Shown piece by piece: positions 6,001 through 62,060 of a stretch of DNA of 64,000 nucleotides. Both the position numbers and the translations under genes were made by a program. The stretch is from Sphagnum compactum. Taxonomy: Eukaryota. Where the stretch lies: NCBI GenBank assembly GCA_965153455.1, contig OZ234493.1, positions 35,392,213 through 35,456,212 of the forward strand, written 5' to 3'. Within the stretch, counting starts at the first letter, position 1; the number at the start of each line of letters is the position of its first letter. The notes beneath the pieces are model-generated. The model did no database searches, was not told the origin of the DNA, and saw only the letters and a list, made by a program, of their open reading frames with translations.

Positions 6001-6997
6001 TTCAATAGTTTGGGGGCCATGATGCAGCTGATTACATTTGTTGTTGTTGGAGTTGTCCATTTGTGTACATTCAAACAGAGACCTCTATCTTTCATTACCC
6101 AGAGGCAGTGCCATGAAGTTCACAAACATACAAGACACTAGTGCTATCTTCACTGGATTGCTTGGTACTATGTCCGACACTAGTATTACCGCACTATGCA
6201 CAAGAAATGATGGATGGGTGAGGCAGTGAGAATGGCATGGCATGGGCTGAACTCACTTGGAAGTGAGTTAATCTGGCCTTACTGCTGTCTAGCTTTTTTC
6301 TTGTACCCAACATGTTCAAAGCAAAATTTGAACCTTCATGTCCAATTGGCCTTCCAGTAAGTGCTAAACTTTCCTAGGCATTCTCACCAATTGATGCTAC
6401 TCAGAAAACTGGAAAAACAACCCCCTGTCCATGAGGTGCACAGTCTCAAAGTGATATGTCTGTGATGATGAAACAAGAAGATTTAGGCATGTTTCTGTTT
6501 GTTTTTGCTGCATGTGGTAACTAGTAACCCATCATCTTCTTCATCTCATATACCTTTCAAGCTGAGCTAGGAGCTCGGCAGCTACATCGTGATTAATTTC
6601 CACAGTCAACAGGCAAACCCTTTGTTTCTGTTTCCCTAAGAAAATAGGCTTGTATGTTGTATCTCATGTCACCAAACCACACAAACAGATATCAGCAAAC
6701 TTCTGTACCTTCGGATTGTTTCCTCTACTACCATGTTAGAAGATGCATTTTACCACATTCATCTAACTTGTACTGATCAGTCAACATGTTGTGCATTTTG
6801 ACATAGGTACTTGAAAGCTTTTTTCCCCCCCCCCCTTTTCTTCTTCCTGAGAGCCATGGCTCTGTCTTGAAGCTGTTTGGGAAACCAAAATCCACAATTG
6901 TACCTGGAGATCTACTAGCCTGCCTACTTTTGATATCATAAGTCTTGTCCTCAATTTCAGATGAGGAGGCTACACATACACACAGCTACACTTGATT

Positions 6998-7334
6998 CTT
7001 GGTCTGGCTGCTATTCACATGTTCAGTTGTGATTTGTTTGCCCCATAGTTCCACTTGGTCTGGCTGCTATTCACATGTTCAGTTGTGATTTGTTTGCCCA
7101 AAGTTCCACTTGGTCTGGCTGCTATTCACATGTTCAGTTGTGATTTGTTTGCCCCATAGTTCCACTTGGTCTGGCTGCAATTCACATGTTCAGTTGTGAT
7201 TTGTTTGCCCCATAGTTCCACTTGGTCTGGCTGCAATTCACATGTTCAGTTGTGATTTGTTTGCCCCAAAGTTCCACTTGGTCTGGCTGCTATTCACATG
7301 TTCAGTTGTGATTTGTTTGCCCCATAGTTCCACT
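6998..7334. repeat. Minisatellite, 6 x 56 bp
   Basis: Units start at 6998, 7054, 7109, 7165, 7221 and 7277 (CTTGGTCTGGCTGCTATTCACATGTTCAGTTGTGATTTGTTTGCCCCATAGTTCCA), near-identical, no spacers. Confidence 0.97.
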
Positions 7335-7419
7335 CTCGAATCATAAGTGCATGTACCAAGTAAGCTTACCTTGTTGTGAAATTTGGCACAACAAGTTTTG
7401 AGGCGTTTTAAGTTTTATC

Positions 7420-7762: not shown

Positions 7763-10515
7763 GTTTTGACCAGCATTGGGTCGTTGTCAATTTTTGGAAC
7801 CAGCAGGTAAGGGTTAGGGTTTATGTATACCCTTGACTGATGGTTAGCAAGCTCAAAGGACTGGTTCTAACCCGTGACCAGAGGTTCTACAACTCATTAG
7901 ACACAGTTTTGACCCTTAACCAGGGTTCTAAAAAGAACCAAAGGACTGGGTCAAAGAAATGGCTTATTAATTGGCCGGTTCGTTCATGAGAACCACCATT
8001 CTTCATAAAATTGTGGATGCCCAGAACCGGAGGTTCTTCTCAAAACATTAGAGAACCAGAAATGGAGGTTCTGAGATTCTGAAAAGTTCAAAAATAATTA
8101 AATGAAAGCTTGTTAACAAAAATCAAACCCGTGTTGTTATTCAGGTGAAAAAGTTTGTTGAAAACTGTAGTAAACTGGCCCAAAAAACAAATGACCCAAC
8201 ACTAAAAAATGTGTGTCAAAATGTGGCAAATGTTTTCCTGACAAAAAAAACTGTTTTCTCAAAAAGTTTGGCCAAAAATGCGGGGAAATGGCAACAGAAT
8301 ATTCATTTATATTTTTTGAGGTTGAAATTAGGTGTGTGAAATCTCTTGCCCGAAAAAAAAAAAAAAAAAAAAAAAAACACTGCTTTGTACATGAGCGAAA
8401 GTTTCAAGCACAGCAGCTGAACTCCCCGACTGTCCATGTTGCACAAGTGGAAGGACCTCGCTACAATTTCTTTCTGAGTTATACAAGATAGCACCTTACA
8501 AGGTGGAAAGAGCCTGTGCTCTGGGGATGGTAAGTTTAAGACCCGCAGGATCTCTGTCCAGTTCTTAACCCCATTTCAGACCCGGCAGGCTGGTCAAGGA
8601 TATAACCTACTCTTGGACCCTTGGTGGTAACCGGCCATCAAAACACTTGGATGGGATACACAGTCCCTACAGCCAATCACTTTCAAATTGGGTATTACAG
8701 ATTGGGTGGTATGATGTGCAAATTGTGTGTGTGGGGGGGGGGGGATGCCTCTGGCTCTAATAACATAACCGCCAATTTTCAGCTGCACCTTTCTCACACC
8801 CGACCATGGCACTTACCAAGAGTAGTCATTTTTCTTTTTGCGGATCCTTTGAAATCTCCACAATCAGAGCTCGTGTTTACACCCATTGCTTCCTATTTTT
8901 CACACCCGTGGCCACTTACCTCATCCAAAATTTGACCGACAAACAATTCAATTTTATTGTTGCCACTGAAGATCCCCTTATATTAAGAGTAGAGTGTATA
9001 CCAATCTATGTGATTGCATGATTTGAATGATACATTGGAGTGCACATCTTGAGAGTGGTATTGATTATTGCATTTTCTCTCAAGTGTGATGTCTTGTTGG
9101 TATTTCACATAATTGTTACATTTGGTGAGCTATAATGTTGTGATATGGTGCAGGGATTGTGAAGTATTATAAGTGCACAGTGCATGGTGCAGTCTGGAGA
9201 CTATTTTAACATCAAGAGGGTGTCAAAGTCTAGGGGTTTGTATCAAAGAACTTCCTTGCATTCTCTATCATGGTTACCAAAGGCATTGCAGGAACTGTTT
9301 GGTACAGTGGGCAGATTTGAAGACTTTAATGAGAATACTCCAAACACATCATAAAAGCTTCTGGATGAGGATTTATTCAGGACTGCCACATAGACAGTAC
9401 GCCTTAAAGGTCATCAGGAGAGCAATGTGTATAAATTTGCTTCCACTGATTCCAGGACCAATAGACTTCACACCATCAAAGTTGTTCTTGCACCGATTAT
9501 CATTGTTTACTACAGTATGTAATTGAAGAAGGAAAGGTGGCTCATTTATCACAATGAGCAGAGGTTGTCGCTACTGCATTTGCCTTCAATATACCACACA
9601 CACTTTACCGTGTTGATCACAAAGATACTAATAAGCATTCATGATATTCATTCCACAGTATCTTCCCACATGTTCTCCCCTTGTGATGGAACATACACAC
9701 ACATGCAGCAGTAGGAAGGTGCAGGCGAGTGTAAGTATGCACTTTCTGCAATCACTCACCTCAAAATCAGTGTTAAACCGGCTTGCATTCAGACAGTATT
9801 TAGAGAACACAGAAAAACACAGCCTGTGTCCACCAAAGGAGAAATGGACTCTACCCAGAAAACTTTACTACATCAATGAATGAACATAAAGAATAAATCC
9901 TCCAGGCTCCTCCAAGCTCCAAAATGGTTGGCACTGCAAACCCATATCGCACAATGTGGCTTGGAACTCTTTTTGTCCAATTCTTGTTCAGATCAAGAAG
10001 CCTGGCTGGCCACAAACTGGATGAGGCCTATGGGCAATAAGAAAAAAACATGCACCTGTGTCAAATTCCAGACATGAAAAACATTTCTTCCATTGCACCC
10101 TGCCATGCTTTTAGACAAATTTTTTTTCACAAAATAAGCACAAAGTAGCAAGGCATTAGACCTTAGACCTTGGGTGTTAACCAAAACAAGGTCATTTGAG
10201 GGGGGGTCAATAAATCAAACCTTGCCAATGTTGAGCATCATGATTGATCCTCTGAAATGTTGTACCTAATATGAATGGGTAAATGTATAGCGGGGTGAAA
10301 TACCAAAATTAAATGTTGGAAGTGAAAAAAATGAAACTCTATGAGAGCACACTTTGAGATGAGTACTGTAACAGCTGAGCAAATGCATACCCATGACTTA
10401 TAACACCAGATACAGAATGATGTCATGTCATTGCTGCCCTTGAGCTCATGGAAATATTCTTAGATCCCAAAGTAGGATCCTTCATCGGCAGCCCATTTAT
10501 AGTCAGAATCATAAG

Positions 10516-13500
10516 TTAATGCCTCCAGTCTTTGCTGCCATTGTCTTGAAGCTCTGTGGATCCCTGGTTCAAGTCCTTCAGCATCTCCACCACTTGTTGC
10601 ATTGTTGGTCTGTTTGCAGGGGAATTTTGTGCACACATCGTTGCTGCCTGCCATATATGTGCATAATTACTTAGGCACAATTTGTAAGCTACAAAGCAAT
10701 GTGCCACAAAATTTACCTGGCAACATATCAACCTGCCTAACAAGCAAAGACAAAGATTTTCCCACAACTGGGAAAGTGAGTTCAGTGTAAGGTAAAGCAC
10801 AAGGGTGAGGGCGTTACTGAAATATGGGCCCATGCGAGGTGGCAGTGAAGTGCTGCCCAATTTCAGTAATGCCCTTGTATGCATGCTTTACCAAGTGTAA
10901 AGATCAACCTTGCATTTTGTTTTTTAATTTTTTTTCCCATCAGGTATCACAGGAAAAGAAGACAACAGGCTTTACCAAATTGGGAATGCCTGCAGGAGCA
11001 GAACTTTCTGTTTTGGAAAAGCCCGGTGGGATTTTTTACGCTCTGCAAGGTGCTCTCTAGATACACTAGAGAAATGAGAGGAGGTCTTTATTCTACCTGT
11101 ACCACCCTGGTCAATTCATACTCATGGAATTCGCCGCACAGCTTTGGATCAGCTAAGTCATGAAAGTTTCCTTGCAAGACCAAGGGGCCAGCCCACTCCA
11201 CAATTGTCCGCTTCGTGGCCCCTATCCGTTCAATTGGCTTCCTCCCACTGATGAGCTCCAGTAGCAGTATTCCAAAGCTGTACACATCGCACATCTCAGA
11301 AACTTTTCCCCACATGGCATACTCTGGTGCTAAGTATCCGAGTGTACCCTTCACTCGTGTTGTTACATGTGTTGCACCCTCTGGAATTAGCTTTGCAAAT
11401 CCAAAATCCGCCAACTGGGCCTCAAAATTCTCATCCAAGAGAACGTTGCTGGCCTTGATGTCCCGGTGAATAATGTGGGGTTTTGCATAGTGGTGTAAGT
11501 AACTGTACAGAGACACCAGACAAAAACAATTAACCATTTTTTGCTTGTCACCCACATGCTAGCTTCTCATTTTACATCAACAGGTAGCTGGTATTGTAGC
11601 GTTTACAAAAAGCTTGTAAACCCTAAGACCCATTTCATCAATTGGTGAATGTCTCTTGAATCCAGAACATCAGGCCTGCTTTTGCAGTTCTTTGACGCTG
11701 CCCAGGCACACTTCAGTGAGTTTCAGTTGGTTGCAATTCAGGGAGTGAAATCTATTGCATTTCCAGAAGCAGACAAAAGACTCAGTCCTGATGTTGGCCA
11801 TCCAGCAGTTGAGATACAGAAGACAGGGATTAGTACTTACGCAAGGCCTTCAGCAGAACCAGTGGCGATTTTCATTCTCCGTTGCCAATTGAGGGCAGAC
11901 TCTGATGAGAGTTCGCCATGCAAATGGGATAGCAAACTGAGCTTGGGCATGTAGTCGTACACAATCAAGCGCTCCTGGCCCTCCGCACAGTAACCTCTCA
12001 GGCTTAACAAGTTTTTGTGTCGAACACGCCCCAGAATTTCAACTTCTACTGCAAACTCCATCTCTGCCTTAGTGCTCCACACTTTCAACCTTTTCACTGC
12101 AATCTGCTTCCCCATATCACCCAGGGTCTCTCATTTCAGCTCCAGAGAAGCAAATTGATGATACCTTGCAAAATACAGTCAAACGGAATTGCACACAAAT
12201 AAGACACTGCAATTTCCCCTCAAGAAAGCACTGGTAGGTAGGTAGTCACATGCAATGCGCTAGGTGATTGAGAAAGTCCAGAAAGTAGCAAACAAAACCC
12301 AATCTCACCATAACAACAACAATGCAGGTGCCCACTTTAGGTCCAAACCTAGTACCATCCTGAAGGCTAGGAACTGACTCATGTGCTGAAGATGATGAGG
12401 TTCTGTAGAGAAGGCAACATAATCAGTCAAACAGGCATATTCTAACAGAGTCTGCAAGCTGCAAAGGGGGAAAAGAGGAGCATGTGGTACACTAGAGTGT
12501 GGGATTAACAGGCCATGACATGACTCCATACTTGGTCTCCATTCGGTAGTTGGCCCCAGTAAACTCTGCCAAAGCCACCTTCCCCTATCTTGTTGTCGTA
12601 GTTGAAACTGCTTGTAGCTGTATGCAATTCTCTTAATGAAAATATGCGCCATGTACCACGACCATGACCACCACCACCACCACCACTTTTGTTGTTATCC
12701 ACCAGCCTGCACTCACCAATGACATCATAAAGCTCAAAACATCATTCACATATTTTTTCCATCCAACACATAATATCTGATGATGTCAAGAGTCTGCCTT
12801 TGAGCATCTCCATGGGCACTGAGTAGTGAAATCTTGGATGAGGTACAGGAGTCAAATCCAGTGGATTCACTGGAAAGACTGCAGTGACTCTGAAAAAATG
12901 CACAGCTTTCAGAGCACTGGAGGAGCCCTGGACCAGTCTAATAGACACAGTCCAACCGTATTTATTGACTGCTCCCTGTTTCTGATTGGCTAGATAGTTT
13001 GATTGGTCCAAGTGGGTTGCTATTAGTAGTCTCCCACCTAGTTGTATTCCCAGTTTCAGTTTCATGGGTGTGGTTGGAAAAAAGAAAGTAACTAAAACTT
13101 GGATGTGAGCAACATTTTTGCAGGGTCACATAACAAGCACTGCTGGAGATGCTCTTAGATCATCAAATGCTGCCCTTGAGATTGCCAAAAGCTGAGCCTG
13201 CCTGAACTATACCCAGCTTGACATCGCCTTCCCACATGGCTGCCCAACCCTACTTCCCATCATGAGTTTGGATGTGTCATTGGACAATGGAGGAGGAAGA
13301 AGAAGAGCAGCCCGGATTCAATCCTGTAATACTTCGGTGTAGCTTCATCCCAGTCTTTGTTTTCACATGATCCTGGCGAGGCCACCTTCACCACTGCTAG
13401 AGATTTTCAACAAAGTAGTAGGTAGTACTGAAGAAGTCCAAGAAAGAGGGAGGGAAGAAACAACTCACATTTCTTCACTTGCGCGCCCCCTGCAGCACCA

Positions 13501-27837: not shown

Positions 27838-29690
27838 TAAGACCTTGATTGGTGACAGGGTTGTTAAATGATTAGTACAAGCAATGGCGACTAAACAATA
27901 TATCAATGAAGGACTACATTTGTAATCATGTTACATATATATATATTATGTTTTTTGGACTCTAATGTGAATGTTGATGTTTTAGCAACATTAATACAAT
28001 TAAAGTGCAACAATACCAATTTGATATATTAATTGTAAGTTTAACATTCTTGAACATGCACTTGCTAGTCACATGGAAGAGAATGAATCATCAATGACGA
28101 AGATGATTTTTAGTGATCATATCCAATTGCCCATTTGATGGCATGGATTATTTTTTATCACACAAGGATCAAGCCACAAAGCAATACCAATCATCGATGG
28201 ATGAAAGGGATCATTTTTCAATCACCCATGGATGGCAAAGATAATTTTCAAAAACCCAAAAATATGTTTTAGTAAAGAAACAACGATATAGATCATTTCC
28301 AATTGCCCATGGACGGCATGGATTATTTTAGGTTGCCCATACATGGTGGACAATTTTGGTAGCCTACCTCCGCCCCCGTCCCTCCCCCAAATTGTGTTGA
28401 TCGTTTTCAGTTGCTTAGGATGACAAAGCCCATATAGTAATAATAAGACAAAAAAAACCCTAATGGTGTAGATCATTTGAGGTCACCTATAAGAGGCACA
28501 ATATTTATCAATAGGAAGGATTGACCTAATTTTTTTGGTTGAGTTTGACAAAGGTTTGAGGTTTAAAAAATAAAGATTAGAAATTCATAGGTTTAATTCA
28601 ATCTCTTAAGAACTTTCTAATTTCATTTATTGCATTCTAACACCCATTTCACATTAGATAAAGAAGTGTTTAAAGATCGTGTGTGAGTAAGTGGGTTGTT
28701 CAGTTCTTGGTATGTGAAAAGACCATGTTGGTCTTGATTTCATTGAATTAGAAGTTTGGAACATTTGAAATGTCTAGGATGTGCCAAGGTGTTCAATCCA
28801 CTATTTGTTTTTTTGAAAAATTGCCATATTTAATGTAAATTTACCCAATTTCCATTTAGTTGAAATCTAAACTTACCAAGACAATGAAAAGAGAAACAAA
28901 ATATGGATGAATGAGGTGGTATCAACTATCAATCAATTGGATAACAATAACAATGACAAGAATGCAGGAACAAGTGGAGAAAGAGTGCGAAGTACATTAG
29001 ACATTTCAATTTCGACCTCCCGCTTTATTGTGACGTGTAGTGTCGTGACATACAGTGTCATAAGGGTGTAAATCCATAGTAAAATCTACTAAACAAAAAG
29101 ATTAAAACCAATCAAAGGTAGAAACTAATCAACCAAAAAGAGATGCATGCACATATACATACAATGCATAGGAGGAGGCTGAGATGAAAATCTCATGTAT
29201 TAAAGTTGCAAAGAAGGAAAAAAAAAAATGTATGTAAATGGTGGCCGTGTAATGGCCGCCATGAGCATCTAAAAATCCAATTTAACTATGGAGGAAACTC
29301 TCCCTGACAAAGGAATTTTAGAAGAAGGGAATAACTTGGCTTTTTATACAGCTGCCAACAAGCTGAAACCGTAAATACTTAATAGCATACAGTAACCTAA
29401 GAACGTACATTAACTTTAAGTTCGTACGTTAATCCTAAAAACTTACATTAACCCTAAAAGGCATGAGTGACATGCCCGTAATTACCCGTCATGTATGAGG
29501 CCATGCATACGGGCATGACAGCTGTCGTGACGTGTAGTGTCGTGACGTACGATGTCGTAAGGGTGTAAATCCATAGTAAATTCTACTAAACACAAAGATT
29601 AAAACTAGTCAAAGGTAGAAACTAATCAACCAAAAAGAGATGCACGCACATATAATGCATAAAAAGAGGTTTAGATGAAATTCTCATGTA

Positions 29691-29700
29691 TCCCCCCCCT
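29691..29700 (-). promoter_or_regulatory. Polypurine tract (AGGGGGGGGA)
   Basis: Lies just downstream of pol and abuts the start of repeat A' in sense orientation. Confidence 0.8.
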
Positions 29701-29741
29701 AGAGCTGAGCCGAGAAAAGCATGGCATGGTCTGAGTAGAAA

Positions 29742-32700
29742 TCAAGGTTTTATAGGAGAACATGATGAACAGTACCACATGCCGGCGGGAACTTGAATGA
29801 GCTCCGGCTTGAGGCAGAATAGATGGTATCCACCATTACAATTATCGCAAAGCAACATCTGATCAGCATCGTCTATCCTTTGACATACCTAACATGGGTA
29901 GTCAAGTGGAGGAATCCAAGTTGACGTGATGATGGTAGGATCTAAGTTCGGCAGGTGGCAAGGTGCAAAAATTTTGGAGTGACCCTGAATTGTGCGTTCG
30001 TCAGTTCCTTGTAACTCCAACACACCTAAAGGCCTGATTGCCTTAATCCTCGAGATAGTGCGACCAGAAAAAATGTCTAGGGTATCATTCGGTTGCCGCT
30101 GGAGATACACAAAATCATGAACATCAAATTGTCTCACCTTAGGTTTGTAACTGTACCTCGTGTGTGTGCATATCGTAAGGTGTCTCGATGCTGTGCAATG
30201 GACAAGTTCTCCATGGCTATGGGCATAACCGTCCTAAATAGAGCAGCCTTCTCTGCAATGATCTTAGCCCAAGCGGCCGAGGAGTCCAAGTCCACAACCT
30301 GGTCCATTTGAGTAGCAATGGAAGAGGGTGGAATAGGATGTCTTCCAAAAAGTAGAAAGTAAGTAGAGAAATGAGACAAAGAGGCGTGTTTGGACATCCT
30401 GTAACCCATGGCGATGTAAGGTAGGGCCAGGTCCCAATCCTCTTTGTTCCTAATGAGGCAAATCTTCCGAAATCCCTTCTTGCATGTCTAAACCATCCTT
30501 TCTGCAAGGCCATCAGCTTAGGGATGATCCCTTGAAATCCGGCGATGGTCAATGAGAGTATGGTTAAATAGGTCTTGGAATTCTCCTCTGAATTCTGATC
30601 CTTGATTAGTAAGGCACTCAGCACAAGTCCCAAACCTACTTAGGACTTGTTGTATGAAAGCCTGGCTGGTGTTGTGTGATGATTTGTCCGGCAGCGCAAC
30701 AAGCTCGACCCACTTTGAAAAATGCTCAATCATAATCATGATGTAGACATTACCCTTGGAGGTCTGTGGTAACTCTCCAGCTAAATCACATGACCATCGA
30801 TAGAACATGCCCTGAATAGGGAGTGGAAAAAGCGTGAGCTGTCAAGAGGAGAAGGAAGTTCTCACTCTATCACATTGTTCACACTTAGCAATGGTGTCTC
30901 GGACTTGAGCATACATACCTTTCCAATGGTAATGAGGAGCAAGAAGGCTATAAGTAGGCTTAACTCCAAAGTGTCCAAGCTTCGAGTGTACCTTCTGAAT
31001 AAAACCAGACCGTTCATGTGGTGGAAAAACCATTCTGTTGCCTTGTGGTAAGCATCGGACGAGGTGATTGTCCCTCCTTGAGTAGCGTTTGGACTGTTGT
31101 TGTATGCGATTTCGATGACTTGATGTAACTTGGGAAGGGTATTCTTCATTCTGAAGAAACCTCAGAGTGTTCAAGTCTTCCCATATATCCAAAATGGGAT
31201 GCTCAACCAGGTTACATTGCAGTAGTGCAAGATAACTAGATGCATAAGATATATGTATTGTTGGAATCTGGTCGAAGTCTTGCTTGGTTTCTGAGAAATC
31301 TTCAGAGGTAGTGACGGGCCTCCGTGACATGTTATCCGTGTTCTGATGTGTAATGCTAGGTCGGTGAATAACCTTGAACTCATATTCCTGAAGCATAAGC
31401 GCCCAACGAGCTAACTTACTAGTAAGCTTGTCGTTGGTCATCAACCACTTGATAGGCTGGTGGTCGGTATATAAAATGAACTCAATGCCATAAAGATACG
31501 GCCTGAAATGTATGACGGCCCATACAACAACAAGACACTCCCCCTCGTATGAAAAGTAGCTACTCTCAACCTTGTTCTTGCTTTAGGATGCATAGGCAAT
31601 AACATATTCCTTGCCTTCCTCATCAAATTGGCCAAAAATAACACTAATACCCACAGCATTCCAGTTAGTGTGTAGAATGAAGACCTTGCTAAAATTAAGT
31701 CTTCTCAAAATGGGGAACTCTGAAAGCTTTTCCTTGAGTGTTTAAAAAGCTTCCTGAGCCTCTTCACTCCATGTCCAAGCAACATCCTTTTTTAACAATG
31801 CATAGAGAAGATGAACAATAGTACTGAAGTTTCGGACATAAATCATGTAGTAATTACACAGTCCGATGAAGCTCTTCAAAGTGTGAACATCAATAGGATT
31901 GGGCATTTCCAAAATGGCTATTACTTTGGCCCAATGAGCCATAACACCATTTGGCAAAATTCTATGTCTAAGGTAGACTATTGAGGTGACAACAAACTCA
32001 CACTTTTTAGGATCGATCTTCATATTGACTTTGTGGAGCCTTTTGAATAACTCTTCAAGATGAGCCAAGTGTTGCAGGAGTCCCTTGCTATGCACTAAGA
32101 TTGTCATCTATGTAGCACTTTAGGAAATCTGCCCCTTCGAGAACCTGGTCCATGAATTGTTGAAAGACTGGTGCATTCTTCAATCAAAAAGGCATCACAA
32201 GCCATTCCCACAACTTGTTGCTTCCATGGAATGTCGTTTTCTTGCGATCCTTCGCATCGAACACAATCTGGTTGAAGCCTTGCTTCAGTTCCATAATTGT
32301 GAAGAATGTTTGAGTCTCTAATGCTATCAAACAGTTCTTCAGGGAGGGCATGGGGTATCCGTCCTGAGGTGTAACCAGGTTCAAAGGCCTATAATCCCCG
32401 CACATCCTTTTCTTAGTCCATAATCCAGCTGAATTCTTCTTTGTTGGCATTATTGTAGCAGCTACAAAATTAGAATTTGATGGCTGAATGAGACCAGCCT
32501 CATGGAGCTCTTTGCATCTTTCATCTACTAGTTCCCACTCATGCTTGCTCAACTTATGCCTCCTCTGATAGATGGGTGTCTCATCTATAAGGTCTATAGA
32601 GAACTGCATGGTCTTACACCTACCTAAGTCTTTCATTGAGAATGCAAACACATTCTCATACTTAATTAACAAGTCTGTGACCTGGTTTCTCTCCTTCTTG

Positions 32701-33149
32701 GTGAGTTGGTTCCCCATAACGAAAGGGTAGTTGGAAACACATGGAATGGAGTTGGAAAGTGTGTTTGAAAAACCTGGTGTATTGGGTTTTCCACTATCCA
32801 ACTGCGCAAATTCGTAGAAGGTTGTAATTGTTTCTCCAGAAGCTGATGTGCCTCCAGGTGTATCAAAAACAACTTGAGTCAAAGTACATGGTACCTCCTC
32901 CCCCCCAACACTAAGAGTGAAGTGTAGAGTGTTGAAGATAGGCAAGTGTACTTGGTCGGGGTGCCATGTAGTCGCATCGCCAGAACTGCAAGTTGATTGA
33001 ATTAGTGCTGGTGTTGTGTACATTTGAAAGAATACACAAGTTACGAATAACCATGTAAGGGAATTCAGGTCCATGCATCTTCCCAATAGAAGGTTACGCT
33101 CCAACCTAGTCACCTTGGTGTGACTAGTAGTGCTAGTTTGGAACCCCAT
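29742..33149 (-). pseudogene. pol: Gypsy pol (RT, RNase H, integrase, C-terminal PHD finger), disrupted by frameshifts and stops
   Basis: RT: KRMCGDYRPLN, KTTF, VMPF, CYIDD (~32104-32118). RNase H: YTDHQPIKWL..KLARWALMLQEY. Integrase HHCC: HSKLGH..CEQC. Integrase core: WSCDLAG..EHFSKW..TNQGSEF..DGLAER. The coding region is split over at least 7 ORF fragments. Confidence 0.95.
29760..29894 (-). other. PHD finger (C4HC3) at the integrase C-terminus
   Basis: Manual translation gives C*VCQRIDDADQMLLCDNCNGGYHLFCLKPELIQVPAGMWYCSSC, in frame with ORF 29889-30137. The single TAG is plausibly a decayed CAG. Confidence 0.9.
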
Positions 33150-33874
33150 AGCCCTTTTTCTTTATTCTGGGCTTGGTTCATTCCAAGTGGCTGAAGCATG
33201 ATGATACACCAGGCCTGGTCCATTTCCCTAAAAGGCGTGTGTTCCTGGGAAGGAGACAAAGGTGGGCCAAACACCTCTTGGTTTTCCTATTGTGTTCGCA
33301 GGAAACCAAGAAGGTTTCTCTTGCCTTGTAACTGGTTGGCAGGAGCTTTGATCATCCAATATGTGAGAAACCTGCAGGTTGGGGTCTATGCTGCAAGTCG
33401 CTACGAATGTCGCGTTGCAGGTCGCGGCGTTGCAGGTCGTGACACTGCGGCTTGCGATGGACATTGCGTTGTAGGTCATGGCTTGTGATGGACGCCGCAT
33501 TGTAGGTCGCGGCTTGTCAATGGATGTGACACTGCAGGTCGTGCCGTTGCAGCAATGGCGGACGCAGCGTTGCAGTTCGCCAAGAAGCAATTTTGTCCTC
33601 CTATGTCTCTGGGCGAGAGAGAGAGAGAAAAAGAGAGAGAGAGCTTTGAAACTTGCTGGACGATACGTCATTCCCCCGTTTGGTTTCGCTCTTCCCAACT
33701 CCTCCGATCCCGGCTCTGTTGGTTGGCAGAGGTGTAATAGCACAAGCTCCTTCTAGCAGCTGCAACACCAGCAGTAACAACAACACGAGCAACAACAACA
33801 TCTGCAGCAAAAAGAAACAAAAAAACTCACAGCTAAGAAAATTTGCCGCTTTCAACATTAAGCAATAGAGAGTA

Positions 33875-33888
33875 GTTTTTCTAGAATT
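33875..33888 (-). promoter_or_regulatory. Putative self-priming PBS (AATTCTAGAAAAAC)
   Basis: Located at the inner edge of B'. It is the perfect 14-nt reverse complement of 34002-34015. No TGG tRNA-type PBS is present. Confidence 0.7.
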
Positions 33889-34040
33889 AAAATTGCAAAG
33901 AAGGAAAGAAAAGAAGTGTATGTAAACGGTGGCCGTGTAATGGCCGTCGTGAGCATTTAGAAATCCAATTTGACTATGGAGGAAACTCTCATTGACAAAA
34001 GAATTCTAGAAAAACCAACAACAGAAGGGAATAACTTGGC

Positions 34041-34048
34041 TTTTTATA
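34041..34048 (-). promoter_or_regulatory. TATA box of retroelement 5' repeat (TATAAAAA)
   Basis: About 33 nt upstream of the putative self-primer/TSS at 34015; conserved in copy B (29341-29348). Confidence 0.6.
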
Positions 34049-34093
34049 CAGCTGCCAACAAGCTAAAACCCTAAACACTTAATAGCATATAGT

Positions 34094-34197
34094 AACCTAA
34101 GAACGTACATTAACCCTAAGAACGTACATTAATCCTAAAAGCATACATTAACCCTAAGAACGTACATTAATCCTAAAAGCGTACATTAACCCTAAAA
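34094..34197. repeat. 19-bp tandem repeat in retroelement repeat B' (5 units; 3 units in B)
   Basis: AACCCTAAGAACGTACATT / AATCCTAAAAGCGTACATT units. Confidence 0.9.
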
Positions 34198-35732
34198 GGC
34201 ATGAGTGGCATGCCCGTAACTACCCGTCATGTATGAGGCCATGCATATGGGCATGACAGCTTGTTGCTTTTTCCATTGTTTTGTTACTTGGACCTGTGTT
34301 TGAGTTTTTGTAATGTGAACAAAACCCAAATGGGAATTTGGATGAAGAGATGACTTAATGAATGAAGTGATGCGGGGATTTGGATTAGCAGAAAATGCCA
34401 AAAGAAGGGATGGTTGGTAATCATGAAACTTAGAGGTTGTTGTTATTCCTTAGCTGTTTTTTAAAAAAAAATTTGTGATTGCTTGTTGTTTGCAAGTGAT
34501 GAGTTCTGTTTTGCATTCTTCATGGTTTGGATGGTGTTTGGCATTGATCGATTTGGTGTTTTGTGTTATTTTTGGATGTGGTGCGTTATGAAGGGTGGAC
34601 ATTGCCATATAAGGAGGAACTTCTAATGTTGAGAAGCCAAGTTTTTGGGTTAGACATTTTGTGTTTTTAGGAATGTATCTTTGAAGCTTTCAAGTGGGGT
34701 GCGTGGGTCTTTGTGTCTTCTAGTTTTGAAGAAGCATCAAGTCAAGTAGTCTTGGTGAGGGATGAATGCCCTAACAGCTATGGGAGCTTTTTAGTAGAGG
34801 GCTTTTGTATCTCTACTACGCCATAGCTTTCTCTTTAGGGACCAATTAAGGACAGTGATGAAGATCTAAAAGGGTTTCAAGAGCAGTCTTCATAACAATT
34901 TGGTTTGTGGTGAGGAGAAATGTCATGTTATTTGGAATATAGTGGGTTATGTGTTGATGGGAAGGAGTACCCACAATTGTGGGAGCTTTGAAAGGAATTA
35001 ATGTGTGACTAGACAACCTTGGGGTTATCAAGACAAATCGGTAGTGGGAAGTCTAGGTTTTCATTTTCTTTTTGTCCAACTCCTGGGATCAATCTGTGGG
35101 AGTTGGGGTGGATTTCATATTCTGAGATTGTGAGCTGGGAGTGTGAATTGCCATGACATGACTAATGGGCTCAAAAGAGAGAAGCCGAAGTGAATTTGTT
35201 CCCTTATGATCTGTAGATTAGTGTTGTTAGTATAGTAGATGCTAATAAATATAGTGTTGTTCTGCTCCTATGTATTTCTATAAAGTTCCATAGAAATCAG
35301 TCTGTCTCACAATTTCATCACAGTAGGTGTTACATTAGGCCTGTCCCACAATTTCATCTGGTGACAGTTTAACCATATTTTCCATCATCCACCCTGGCAT
35401 TCCAATTCAATTTCTCGTCTTTGCTACCATGGCCTTTTGACATCTGGCTGCCTCACCATAGTTTGCGTTGTCTCCTTGCTTATCTCCACACTCCACCAAA
35501 GACACAAAAAGATGAAAAAGTTGTGGAAGTTGAATTTTGAGATTGAGAATAAATGAATGTAGGTTAGGAACGTGGAAAATTTATAAGAGTTGAATCTAAG
35601 AAACAAGATGAATGAATTGCAAGCCGAAGAAGATGAAATTTATGGACAAATCTAGGAAACATAGGTAAAGCCAGGATGATGAAGCACAGGGATGCCAGAA
35701 CATTTTATGACCAAATGGGCAGAGAAAAGAAG

Positions 35733-52179: not shown

Positions 52180-54439
52180 CATTAGAAGAAATCTGAAAGT
52201 CAATGACTGAATTTGTGACTCATTTATAGTTGTAATGGACACATGCGACTAAAAATAACTTAATTGCCTTGGACAAGTGCCATAAGATAGTCAATCGCAA
52301 AAGACATTACACGGCCATGAAGTTGAAAGCATAGTCACAAACCTTATGACTAGGCCATAATTTTTCATCCATTGCCATGGATGATCATTAATATGATGTG
52401 GAACCCCAATTTGCAACTGCATTCGTGACTACATTTGGGGTAGTCGCATGTTACCAAATGTGCCATTGATGGGTGGTTAAGATTTAATCACATGGTAATT
52501 TTAAAAAGCCAATGGCCATAAAACACGTGAAAATTTTCCATTTGTTAAAATATATATAATATGATTACAGTAATTAAATATTATAATTATAGTAATCAAT
52601 TATTTTAATTCATTAATTATAATCTATCTTAGGCTAAACTATAATAGGCAACATATTCTAGGTTAGGCTTGGGTAGAATAAGCTAGCTAGCATAGGTTAA
52701 GTAAGTAGGTAAGATCCTATTTATTTTATTGGGGACAAGCTTTTTGATTGGCTCATCCCAAATGGCACATGCACTATATTTATAGTGCATACCATGAATC
52801 TAATCCATTCTTTCACCTACTTATATACTTTACAAAATTAAAGTTGTAGACAAAAGATATGGGACAATTCTAATGAAAGGGAAACACTACAACATTATCA
52901 CATCCTTTGTCCCATACAAAAACATCATCATATATCCACACAATTTAAAATATTAATTGTTTTCACTAACTATTTACTATTTATTACCTAGCCTACCTAA
53001 TAAATTAATATCCTAGCCTACATTTCATAAAATTAATTGTTTAACATAGTTAACTAATTAATCAATTAATACAAAAACATTACAACATATCCATAAAATA
53101 ATTTTTTTTTGCTTAACTTATAACCTACCTACCTACTACCTACTAGTAGCTATCCTACTTATTACATACTACCTAAGTTACATACCTACTATCTAATATC
53201 TAGCCTACCTAATAAATTAATTACCTCGCCTACAATAAATGAATTTTTAACATCGCTAATTAATTAATCAATTAATAGAAAAACATTATGACATATCCAC
53301 AAAATAAAATACCTTTTGCTTAGCTTACCTACCTACCTACTAACTACTAGTACCTATCCTATTTATTACATACTACCTAGGTTAGATACCTATTATCTAC
53401 TACCTAGACTACCTAATAAATTAATTATCTACCTTACATTTAATAAATTAATTATTTAACATAACTAATTATTTTATCAATTGAGACACAAACATATGAC
53501 ATATCCACAAAATAAAATACCTCTTATTTAGCTTACCTACCTACTAACTACCTACTAGTCCCTATCCTACTTATTACATACTACCTAATCTAACTAGTCA
53601 ATTGATTAAGTACCTAACCTAATTAATTGATTAATTAATATGAAAACATAATCACATATTCACATAATAAACTAATAAACCTACCTACTACCTATATTCC
53701 TACTTACTACCTATTACCTAGTTTACGAATTGATTAATGACCTAGCCCACCAACTACCTACCTAGTTAACCTAGCCTAACTAAGTCTAACCTTCATAGCC
53801 TAGCCGATTAGCTACACCTAATAAACTAGCCTACTATTACCTATAAATAACTTAGGCCAATTAATTACGTATGCAAGCTAGGTTAGGCTACCAATGTACA
53901 TAGGCCTACTTAGTTTAATGTAACCTATTAAGCTTAGTTAGCTTAGTTTACCAACTAAGTTATAATAGCCTTTTCTAGCAAACTATTAACTATTAGATAT
54001 TATTTCATGGAAGACCCATGGATAATTGTAAAAAAGACCCATGGATGGGTACATTGAAAGGATAATAGTCCAATTGAAATAACAAAATTTGCCATATGTG
54101 GTTTATGTTTGTTTGTTCATGTGGTATAATATACTATTGTAGTTGAAAAACCTTTCATTTGTAGTTGCAAAAACAACTACGTTATCATCCATCAATGAAT
54201 GTAATCAAAATTGGATGATTTTGTTCACTTTTCATCTACATGTAGTCGTAAATTGCAATCGCATCTACAACTAAAATTTGGTTCAACCCTTCTTGTAGTT
54301 GCATGTGTGACTACAACAAGTTGCAACTACATAGACACATAAGACTAACACACTGCTAGTTATAAAATCAATTGATTTGGACATTAATCGCATATTAGTT
54401 GCAAAAATATGGTTTAAATGGACAACATTTCTTTTTGTG
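52180..54439. mobile_element. Non-autonomous CACTA element (2.26 kb), related to 17422-20136
   Basis: Decayed termini CATTAGAAGAAAT..ATTTCTTTTTGTG with TSD ATT (52177-52179, 54440-54442). Same GCGACT/GCAACT subterminal motifs and CCTACCTA-rich interior. Confidence 0.8.
52930..53700. repeat. ~207-bp degenerate tandem repeat inside CACTA element
   Basis: ACATATCCAC/TAAAATA anchor recurs near 53085, 53291 and 53499, with partial copies near 52930 and 53653. Confidence 0.75.
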
Positions 54440-55091: not shown

Positions 55092-56161
55092 CATTACTAG
55101 AAATTACATCCTATTCCGTTGAAGTTGACCACCCAACTAGTTGTTGAATGGAAACACTATCACAAAATAACATCCTAGTGGATTCGACTATCAATTTCCA
55201 TTGTAATGGATCTTTAATGGAAAATTCCTACTAAATTGCACTCCTATCTATGTGCCACTGGGGTGCGATGGGAATAATTGTTCATTGACAAAATTTTCAT
55301 TTGAAGTTTGTACCTCCATGGATCAATGGAAATACATAGTGGAAATTGTATAGTGGAAATGCATAATGGAAATTGTAAAGTGGAAATACATAGTGTAAAT
55401 TTAAAAATGAAAATTACAAAGTGGGAATGCACAATGGAAATTGCATAGTGGAAATGCACGATGAAAATTTCATAGTGGAAATGCACAATGGACATTGCAA
55501 AGTGGAAATGCATAGTGGAAATGTATAATGGAAATTGCATACAAAAAATGCAAAATGGAAATTACATAGTGGAAATGCATAATGGAAATTGTGAAGTGGA
55601 AATGCACAATGGAATGCACATGCAATTTAACTTATAATTGGATATATGTAATTTGGTACATGTTATATTACCAAAGTAACTGGTAGTTGGATGGCAAAGA
55701 CCTTGGATTGGTGGTCTCCAAGGTTCAAACCTTGATACCAACAATGGAAATTCGATCGTATGTTGACTTTTACATGTCATATGTTGATCGTACAGTGACT
55801 ATATGTTGATTGTACATTGACCATATGTTGACCATACAATGATTGTATATAGGTCATATGTTTGGAAAATATGAATAATAGTAATATTGTTATTTATAAA
55901 TTAAAATAAAATATCAACGTACAAAACCACTACTTCTTACATGAATGATGAATGGAAATGCATAGTGGAAATGCACTGGCCAAGTTTGATGAACCAGTGA
56001 ACAAGTTGTTGGGTGGAATCGCCAATGGAACTGTTGCCACACAACCCATTTCCTAGCAATGACCACTAGGGCAAAGTCAATTTCCACTATAGTGGTTTTT
56101 GGGATTTCCAGCCATTGTTGGGTGGAATACACATTGGAATTAGACATAATTTCTTGTAATT
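55092..56161. mobile_element. Non-autonomous CACTA element (1.07 kb), second family
   Basis: Decayed termini CATTACTAGAAATT..AATTTCTTGTAATT with TSD TAT (55089-55091, 56162-56164). GTGGAA/TTCCAC motifs at both ends. Confidence 0.7.
55325..55620. repeat. ~13-bp GTGGAAATGCATA/ATGGAAATTG array
   Basis: About 20 head-to-tail TGGAAAT units inside CACTA 55092-56161. Confidence 0.85.
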
Positions 56162-61539: not shown

Positions 61540-62060
61540 AGATATTGTTGAAATGTATTAAATAACCAAATTAAAATGCATTTTCAATTGAATTAATTGA
61601 CCTTTCTTCTATAAAAACATTTATATGTGTGAAAATCTTGAAAAAATCAATTTAGAATGGAATTTAATTTTTTTCATTTGGAAAAAGTTTGAAAAAGATA
61701 ATAATGATTAAAAAAAGAAAAAATATTTAAAGCACCATTGTTGAAATGTATTAAATTGCAAGTTTGAAATGTATTTTTAGTCAAATTAAGTAGTTATTTT
61801 TTATTTAAAATATTAAAGATGTGTACGTCTTGGGAAAATCTTCTAAAATGAATTTGTTACTTTTTCATTTGGACAAAGTATGAGAAAGATAACAATGGTT
61901 GAAAAAAAGAAAAAATCTTCAAAACATCATTGACATTGAAATGTATTAAATCGTAAGATTCAAATGAATTTGCATTCAAATTATATAGTGTTTGTTTTCT
62001 TTAACATATTAAAGATGTGTACATCATGGAAAAATCTTCTAGATTGAAGTTTTAAAATTT
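61540..62060. repeat. ~195-bp degenerate tandem repeat (about 3 units)
   Basis: TTGAAATGTATTAAAT anchors near 61548, 61741 and 61936, with shared TTTTTCATTTGGA..GAAAGATAA segments. Confidence 0.7.

Follow-up and report, generated by a model that had tools for sequence, protein, structure and literature searches.

In Tf1 of Schizosaccharomyces pombe the RNA's initial 11 bases pair with the primer binding site (PBS); RNase H makes its cut between bases 11 and 12 (PMC7175516, available part; Tf1 self-priming is also treated in the accessible part of PMC4600332). For plants, the available portion of one survey (PMC6317226) limits its prediction of self-priming to Tcn1 and TAR. The retrotransposon that we describe here shares with Tf1/Tf2 and the Tf1/sushi group, which includes Tcn1 of mosses and club mosses, the Ty3/gypsy order of pol, the lack of a tRNA PBS and a leader complementary to a site after the 5′ repeat. 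Whereas the Tf1/Tcn1 chromoviruses carry a chromodomain, this element has a PHD finger, split repeats and termini in mid-LTR, and its target-site duplication measures 4 bp against the 5 bp given for SM-Tcn1 in the available part of PMC2864245. The nearest described element, going by the accessible text of PMC5890265 (de Mendoza et al. 2018), is KnitGypsy-Dnmt3 of Klebsormidium nitens, for which Gypsy domains, DIRS-like split repeats (Fig. 4c legend) and a C5 methyltransferase in the polyprotein are reported; that text gives neither a priming signal nor a palindrome nor a mechanism for it. KnitGypsy-Dnmt3 probably belongs to the same clade as our element, the likeness being one of description, not of sequence: a relative of our element, L087 (see below), has the methyltransferase (DNMT), and our element keeps the tail of the ORF. 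Split direct repeats, in the order A1-internal-B1-A2-B2, are also found in PAT, Ngaro and VIPER elements (PMC6681497, available part). These encode a tyrosine recombinase, in contrast to the DDE integrase, TG...CA ends, polypurine tract (PPT) and target duplication found here, and membership in PAT/Ngaro was rejected on the DDE integrase, the target duplication and the absence of a recombinase match.

The window, by which we mean the whole 64-kb stretch of DNA analysed, contains a decayed Ty3/gypsy retrotransposon on the minus strand (29026-34258) with the domain order RT-RH-INT-PHD (Table 1). An empty allele is present in two other organisms (runs X8, 2 contigs, and X11, 1 contig), in which 29021 is joined to 34261 with two letters between; these empty-site contigs fix the ends of the element at 29026 and 34258 and the length of the duplication at 4 bp. 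TG...CA termini, PPT and target duplication are all present, the right end having decayed to CAATA in this copy. It lacks gag, protease and most of the DNMT; in 4/4 runs, the point at which other copies diverge from it is 33387. In P0001, a relative of the window pol, the DD(35)E triad is intact (D582-D642-E677); the best solved match was Ty3-G Gag-Pol (E 1e-94). Pfam gave rve and H2C2 matches and none to a tyrosine recombinase, and no Chromo match in the scanned window ORFs, P0001 or L087, a PHD finger being found instead. Within the window, Rfam gave no match and ARAGORN no tRNA gene. Protein relatives include ones from a liverwort (Calypogeia) and Closterium, and the stretch itself was found in runs from six organisms and two moss metagenomes, which makes a moss the probable host. 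The window copy is an old, internally deleted relic of its family without working function.

Table 1. Features of the retrotransposon in the window and of its insertion site
Feature	Position	Strand	Remarks
Left 4-bp target-site duplication AAGC	34259..34262	minus	empty-allele joint 29021->34261
5′ repeat B′	33888..34258	minus	begins TGTCATG, holds promoter and putative transcription start site (TSS), ends ...TTTA (0-2 nt ambiguity)
TATA box-like TATAAAAA	34041..34048	minus	kept in 4/4 aligned pieces
Leader arm GTTTTTCTAGAATT	34002..34015	minus	putative self-primer, first 11-14 nt of RNA
PBS arm AATTCTAGAAAAAC	33875..33888	minus	complementary to leader arm, adjoins B′ end
ORF1-tail remnant	33024..33374	minus	tblastn to tail of methyltransferase-bearing L087 ORF1, 40% over 117 aa
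pol, RT-RNase H-integrase (H2C2, rve)-PHD finger	29757..32786	minus	interrupted by frameshifts and stop codons; 68-79% identity with P0001
Polypurine tract, A plus 8 G	29692..29700	minus	
Internal repeat A	29523..29691	minus	begins straight after G run, last letters CACGACA; 89.9% identity with A′
A/B junction palindrome CACGACA-GC-TGTCATG	29514..29529	minus	both integrase-type termini head to head, 2-bp spacer
3′ repeat B	29201..29520	minus	12-bp deletion takes most of leader arm
Terminal repeat A′	29026..29200	minus	joined directly to B end; ends CACAATA, decayed from CACGACA
Right target-site duplication AAGC	29022..29025	minus	

Elsewhere in the window, a multi-exon protein kinase gene lies at about 10500-12700 (minus; one exon Pkinase, E 7e-23) and is by eye of the receptor-like cytoplasmic kinase type. 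Tandem arrays occupy 6998-7334 (56-bp unit x 6, 97% matches), 52975-53588 (204 bp x 3), 55327-55620 (13/27-bp units) and 61670-62048 (196 bp x 2). Three pairs of dispersed repeats, each about 190-230 bp long and 68-73% identical (12969-13155/37705-37861, 25023-25231/58749-58959 and 16400-16606/37804-38021), are probably old non-autonomous elements.

The repeats of the element run B′-PBS-internal-PPT-A-GC-B-A′, and two full, equal terminal LTRs touching PPT and PBS are absent from it. B′ and B are 92.2% identical; with 25/320 differences between B′ and B and 17/169 between A and A′ (Fisher p = 0.40), the two pairs have diverged alike, as expected if both were made equal at insertion. As the window copy has aged (8-10% repeat divergence) and lost internal sequence, this order might be put down to a one-off rearrangement or a nested insertion at this locus. 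That reading is scarcely credible in the face of the clean empty allele with its 4-bp duplication, loose A ends with mixed flanks in 96 (X8) and 87 (X11) contigs, B/A joints in three organisms, a solo B-A unit in L001/L012, a further locus (L010) that starts with B followed by the PBS, and the same order in the Chlamydomonas families Gypsy-14a and Gypsy-22_cRei. We rejected it on the empty allele, the A-end contigs, the B/A joints and the algal families of like order. Among the joints listed, five link the A start with the B′ end, four leaving at 29691 and one at 29689, so that there are at least five, with 169 further joints beyond those listed; the five may be read as B/A junctions of other copies. 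The letters at the B/A junction vary slightly between copies (contig joints; L001), and the internal A/B junction is crossed by one contig each in X8 and X11.

The solo unit in L001 (about 6670-7163, minus), the same as L012 about 6857-7350, is 493 bp long, has the termini TGTC...AACA and lies between 4-bp flanks that nearly match (TAGA/TAAA), the form that recombination between the two B copies would give. In L010 (1-3052, minus), B and a PBS-like site are followed by CpG-rich repeats; a pol match is absent from the 3052-nt stretch, which is possibly a non-autonomous derivative. Elements of this layout are probably missed or mis-bounded by LTR finders.

An initial annotation of this DNA had proposed, from a TATA box and an exact 14-nt complementarity between leader and PBS, that the element primes its own reverse transcription. 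All three motifs proved to be in place. GTTTTTCTAGAATT and AATTCTAGAAAAAC are exact reverse complements over 14 nt, and the leader arm starts 33 nt past the first T of the TATA box, in agreement with the spacing of about 33 nt given there; the TSS is predicted at 34016-34014. In the two regions tested, one of 399 nt (the B′ region) and one of 189 nt (TATA to PBS), this is the longest perfect inverted pair, and 0/300 dinucleotide shuffles reached 14 nt in either (maxima 12 and 11). The leader RNA, which the annotation had considered worth folding, forms a 16-bp duplex (one G-U pair) and a further 6-bp stem, with a fold z of −3.7 and 0/200 shuffles as good. TGG is absent from the 25 nt after B′, and the claim that a TGG-starting PBS is lacking was thus correct.

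Perfect inverted pairs of at least 13 nt with a spacing of 50-250 nt occur at six other places in the 64 kb, three of them at least 14 nt long, and since pairs of similar length lie elsewhere, it is the position of the pair and not its length that carries the weight. These six pairs, and the absence of the leader arm from the 3′ repeat B, where a 12-bp deletion and a G>A substitution have removed it, would suit a chance origin of the 14-nt pair in an AT-rich region with the self-complementary core TTCTAGAA. Chance is nevertheless a very improbable source, given that 0/300 local shuffles gave such a pair and that pairing recurs, at the same place and in other letters, in L087 and two algal families. 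On the shuffles and the recurrence in L087, Gypsy-22_cRei and Gypsy-18_cRei, we rejected it.

Conservation in other copies, the lack of which had been named as a ground against the proposal, held in part among close copies. L001/L012 and L010 have A, not G, before the T run, leaving a common core of 13 nt that both keep, but the PBS arm of L010 has two mismatches, and its longest pair is 7 nt, a length found in 213/300 shuffles. Both L001 and L010 were retrieved with the TATA-region motif, and their match to TATAAAAA is therefore by selection.

Sequence just upstream of the leader arm can itself pair with the arm (9 bp, window 34044-34011). An equivalent upstream hairpin of 12 bp (−18.3 kcal/mol) lies at 7228-7255 of L087, and similar arm-pairing hairpins were seen by eye in four algal families; they are weak in L001 and L010. 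Such a hairpin would be transcribed only in the 3′ repeat, where it could mask the primer copy in that repeat from the PBS. B′ also holds 5.3 copies of a 19-bp tandem unit (34096-34195), with fewer copies in B, L001 and L010.

The pairing was found with different letters in more distant relatives. L087, a unit of 9158 bp, was assembled in circular form within a bacterial bin, where it would be a eukaryotic stray; its pol shows 54% identity with P0001. Pol is followed by a G run, some 110 nt of sequence, the palindrome that the window element also has, TATAG and, 29 nt on, an arm of 13 nt. The perfect complement of this arm is found 163 nt further; the letters of the pair differ from those of the window, and the repeat end itself is not fixable from a circular assembly. 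The 13-nt pair was reached by 0/300 shuffles, and the fold (z = −2.8) was equalled by 1/200. Outside coding sequence, the longest exact match that the window element shares with L087 is the palindrome, at 14 nt. In ORF1 of L087 (3-3491), a stretch resembling a protease is accompanied by a C5 cytosine methyltransferase (E 7e-12); the ORF is parted from pol by one stop codon, which is perhaps read through. Methylases accompany RT and integrase in two other proteins, P0006 (Pfam PF00145) and P0026 (a named methylase fusion), and P0068 carries PF05869.

The palindrome, as a 10-nt core, is present in at least 11 places in the accessible part of a Chlamydomonas repeat library (PMC9940879 supplement), in which line breaks may conceal others; 9/11 lie about 50-60 nt after a G run. 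Gypsy-14, -18 and -22_cRei and Gypsy-1 and -3_cInc of that library share with the window element a TGTC start, the G run, GACA-GC-TGTC, B and A and, by eye in those that could be judged, a complementary leader and PBS; Gypsy-14a and -22 also have INT followed by a PHD-like stretch (by eye). Their A is about 55 nt long, against 169 nt in the window, and by eye their sequence is otherwise unrelated to that of the window element. These families are consensus sequences, and their pairing was judged by eye. Gypsy-22_cRei runs B-internal-PPT-A-gc-B-A and has a 15-nt pair with the PBS arm beginning at the last base of B; Gypsy-18_cRei has a 15-nt pair in different letters, its PBS arm straddling the B end; Gypsy-3_cInc matches over the 7 nt visible; and Gypsy-14a has the same repeat order but is itself rearranged. 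Over six families the tally was two full pairs, one in part, three not judgeable (Gypsy-14a, -14b and -1_cInc) and none contradicting. In Gypsy-22_cRei and Gypsy-18_cRei the B end is fixed by the B/A junction, and in four algal families an AT-rich pentamer stands 28-30 nt ahead of the arm (by eye). A starts at the first base past the G run in the window element, Gypsy-14a, -18, -22 and -3_cInc. The portion of the PBS arm outside B varies by family (about 9 nt in Gypsy-18, 14-15 in Gypsy-22 and 11-13 in the window), from which it follows that primer length is not fixed.

Covariation of the 14-mers across subfamilies, as the initial annotation had envisaged, was therefore recovered in L087 (13 nt) and in Gypsy-22_cRei and Gypsy-18_cRei (15 nt each), each in letters of its own. 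It supports the self-priming reading, in which priming and the TSS are predicted from sequence. The leader duplex could alternatively be structural, serving packaging or dimerisation or as a U5-IR-like stem, while a tRNA half or other host RNA acts as primer. tRNA halves do prime several plant Ty1/copia lineages (PMC6317226, available part), and 6/15 pairs of Gypsy-18 lie inside B, where they would serve as a stem rather than prime. With a host RNA as primer, however, the site at the B end would stay constant, whereas this site changes in step with the leader arm across four elements; together with the missing TGG after B′, this makes priming by a host RNA unlikely.

Our searches for relatives differed in yield. 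Of 12 metagenome loci with the 19-nt pattern, three are related (L001 and L012, one locus at 99.5%, and L010) and nine are chance; among the genome-contig loci, 1/4 falls in the clade (L087). Neither the TATA-region pattern nor one pol fragment had a match in viral contigs. An alignment scan of the viral contigs gave 74 loci, comprising 69 distant RT-bearing records (26-38% identity) and five short matches (four PHD-only, one partial RT); the palindrome is in none of the 74. In the Chlamydomonas library, Gypsy-21_cRei_I begins with the GC-TGTC half directly after a record ending in GACA (PMC9940879 supplement, accessible part), which suggests a split element filed as an ordinary LTR and internal part.

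Taking the evidence as a whole, we put the probability at about 0.8 that one arm acts as self-primer and the other as PBS in a green-plant clade of PHD-finger Ty3/gypsy elements that follow the four steps below. RNA would start about 30 nt past the TATA box, at the leader arm (step 1), and its first 11-14 nt would pair with the site adjoining the end of B, a complementarity that is seen in the sequence (step 2). By analogy with Tf1, RNase H would then cut the leader and the short RNA would prime the minus strand, the first base of which would copy the last base of B (step 3). The plus strand would be primed at the G run seen ahead of A (step 4). With plus-strand priming at this G run, the LTR of reverse transcription becomes A-GC-B and the linear cDNA AB-internal-AB, whose ends would carry no TG...CA. 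The position of the PBS thereby also explains the split repeats, a point that the initial annotation had missed.

How such a cDNA would gain the termini seen at the locus is addressed by a fifth step, in which its ends would be joined to form the B/A junction and the DDE integrase would open the palindrome GACA-GC-TGTC inside the 5′ LTR, giving TG...CA ends and a 4-bp duplication. The product, B-internal-A-GC-B-A, would be a circular permutation of the cDNA. We slightly favour this step. Equal divergence of B′/B and A/A′ and the small variation at the B/A junction fit end joining, and in vitro a 2-LTR junction that is palindromic is cut by the integrase of HIV-1 (PMC1905944, available part). 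Cleavage by integrase of a palindrome formed by head-to-head termini is described for HIV-1 and foamy virus in the available parts of PMC1905944, PMC1180852 and PMC4372172; in retroviruses, though, the palindrome consists of the joined cDNA ends and its cleavage is a side route, whereas here it is internal to the LTR, at a distance from the ends of the cDNA, and its opening would be the main route. Against step 5, a two-LTR circle carries the palindrome twice, in equal form, and B-A-B-internal-A, the permutation expected from cutting the other one, occurs in none of the records examined, an asymmetry that step 5 leaves unexplained.

The single permutation would be accounted for if self-priming is true and the split repeats come about by a templated route, with RNA that runs into A′, strand jumps and a linear DNA trimmed by integrase, without a circle; PAT/Ngaro/VIPER elements, moreover, keep the split order (PMC6681497, available part). 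Yet the B/A junction is found at both priming-defined ends in five elements and varies by few letters, which suits end joining, and A/A′ are not significantly more diverged than B′/B. We regard the templated route as possible and end joining, followed by opening at the internal palindrome, as the somewhat better account.

The comparison with Tf1 made in the initial annotation stands for the mechanism and not for membership: since the chromodomain is absent and a PHD finger present, identity with the Tf1/Tcn1 chromoviruses was rejected. In a quick RT tree (71 rows kept, rows under about 300 aligned residues excluded, eight viral-contig loci as outgroups), P0001 and L087 fell in a 27-row branch (98% SH-aLRT) with 16/17 PHD-bearing rows, and the sole chromodomain-bearing match, P0040, stood apart from it; the tree held no named Tf1 or Tcn1 sequence. 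Phygy, the moss non-chromovirus clade of REXdb, is alike in being a moss Ty3/gypsy group with no chromodomain and a 4-bp duplication. It differs in its tRNA-Trp PBS (81%), its NCGN targets and the absence of any extra domain from its listing, with none of which the window element agrees, and identity with Phygy was rejected on PBS, duplication and domain. In the accessible full-text literature, to which subscription papers mostly do not belong, we found no description of self-priming or of a mid-LTR palindrome for this clade, and the available part of PMC9940879 describes only Gypsy-7a ('LTR subparts'). The REM1 paper, Craig's thesis and Repbase reports may already describe some of the structure. 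By a narrow preference, we see here an old green-plant clade with self-priming, integrase sites moved to a mid-LTR palindrome and an end-joined two-LTR intermediate as its normal route. Its range would take in mosses and chlamydomonads and probably liverworts and charophytes.

LTR elements are held to insert their cDNA in linear form, two-LTR circles being by-products. The present findings would extend self-priming to a plant lineage that has no chromodomain and in which leader and PBS covary cleanly. If the proposed route is true, split direct repeats are the footprint of self-priming and circle integration, and the model could extend to the PAT/Ngaro recombinase elements. A natural, high-copy clade with a DDE integrase that points to end-joined opening would make the question of circle integration testable in Chlamydomonas.
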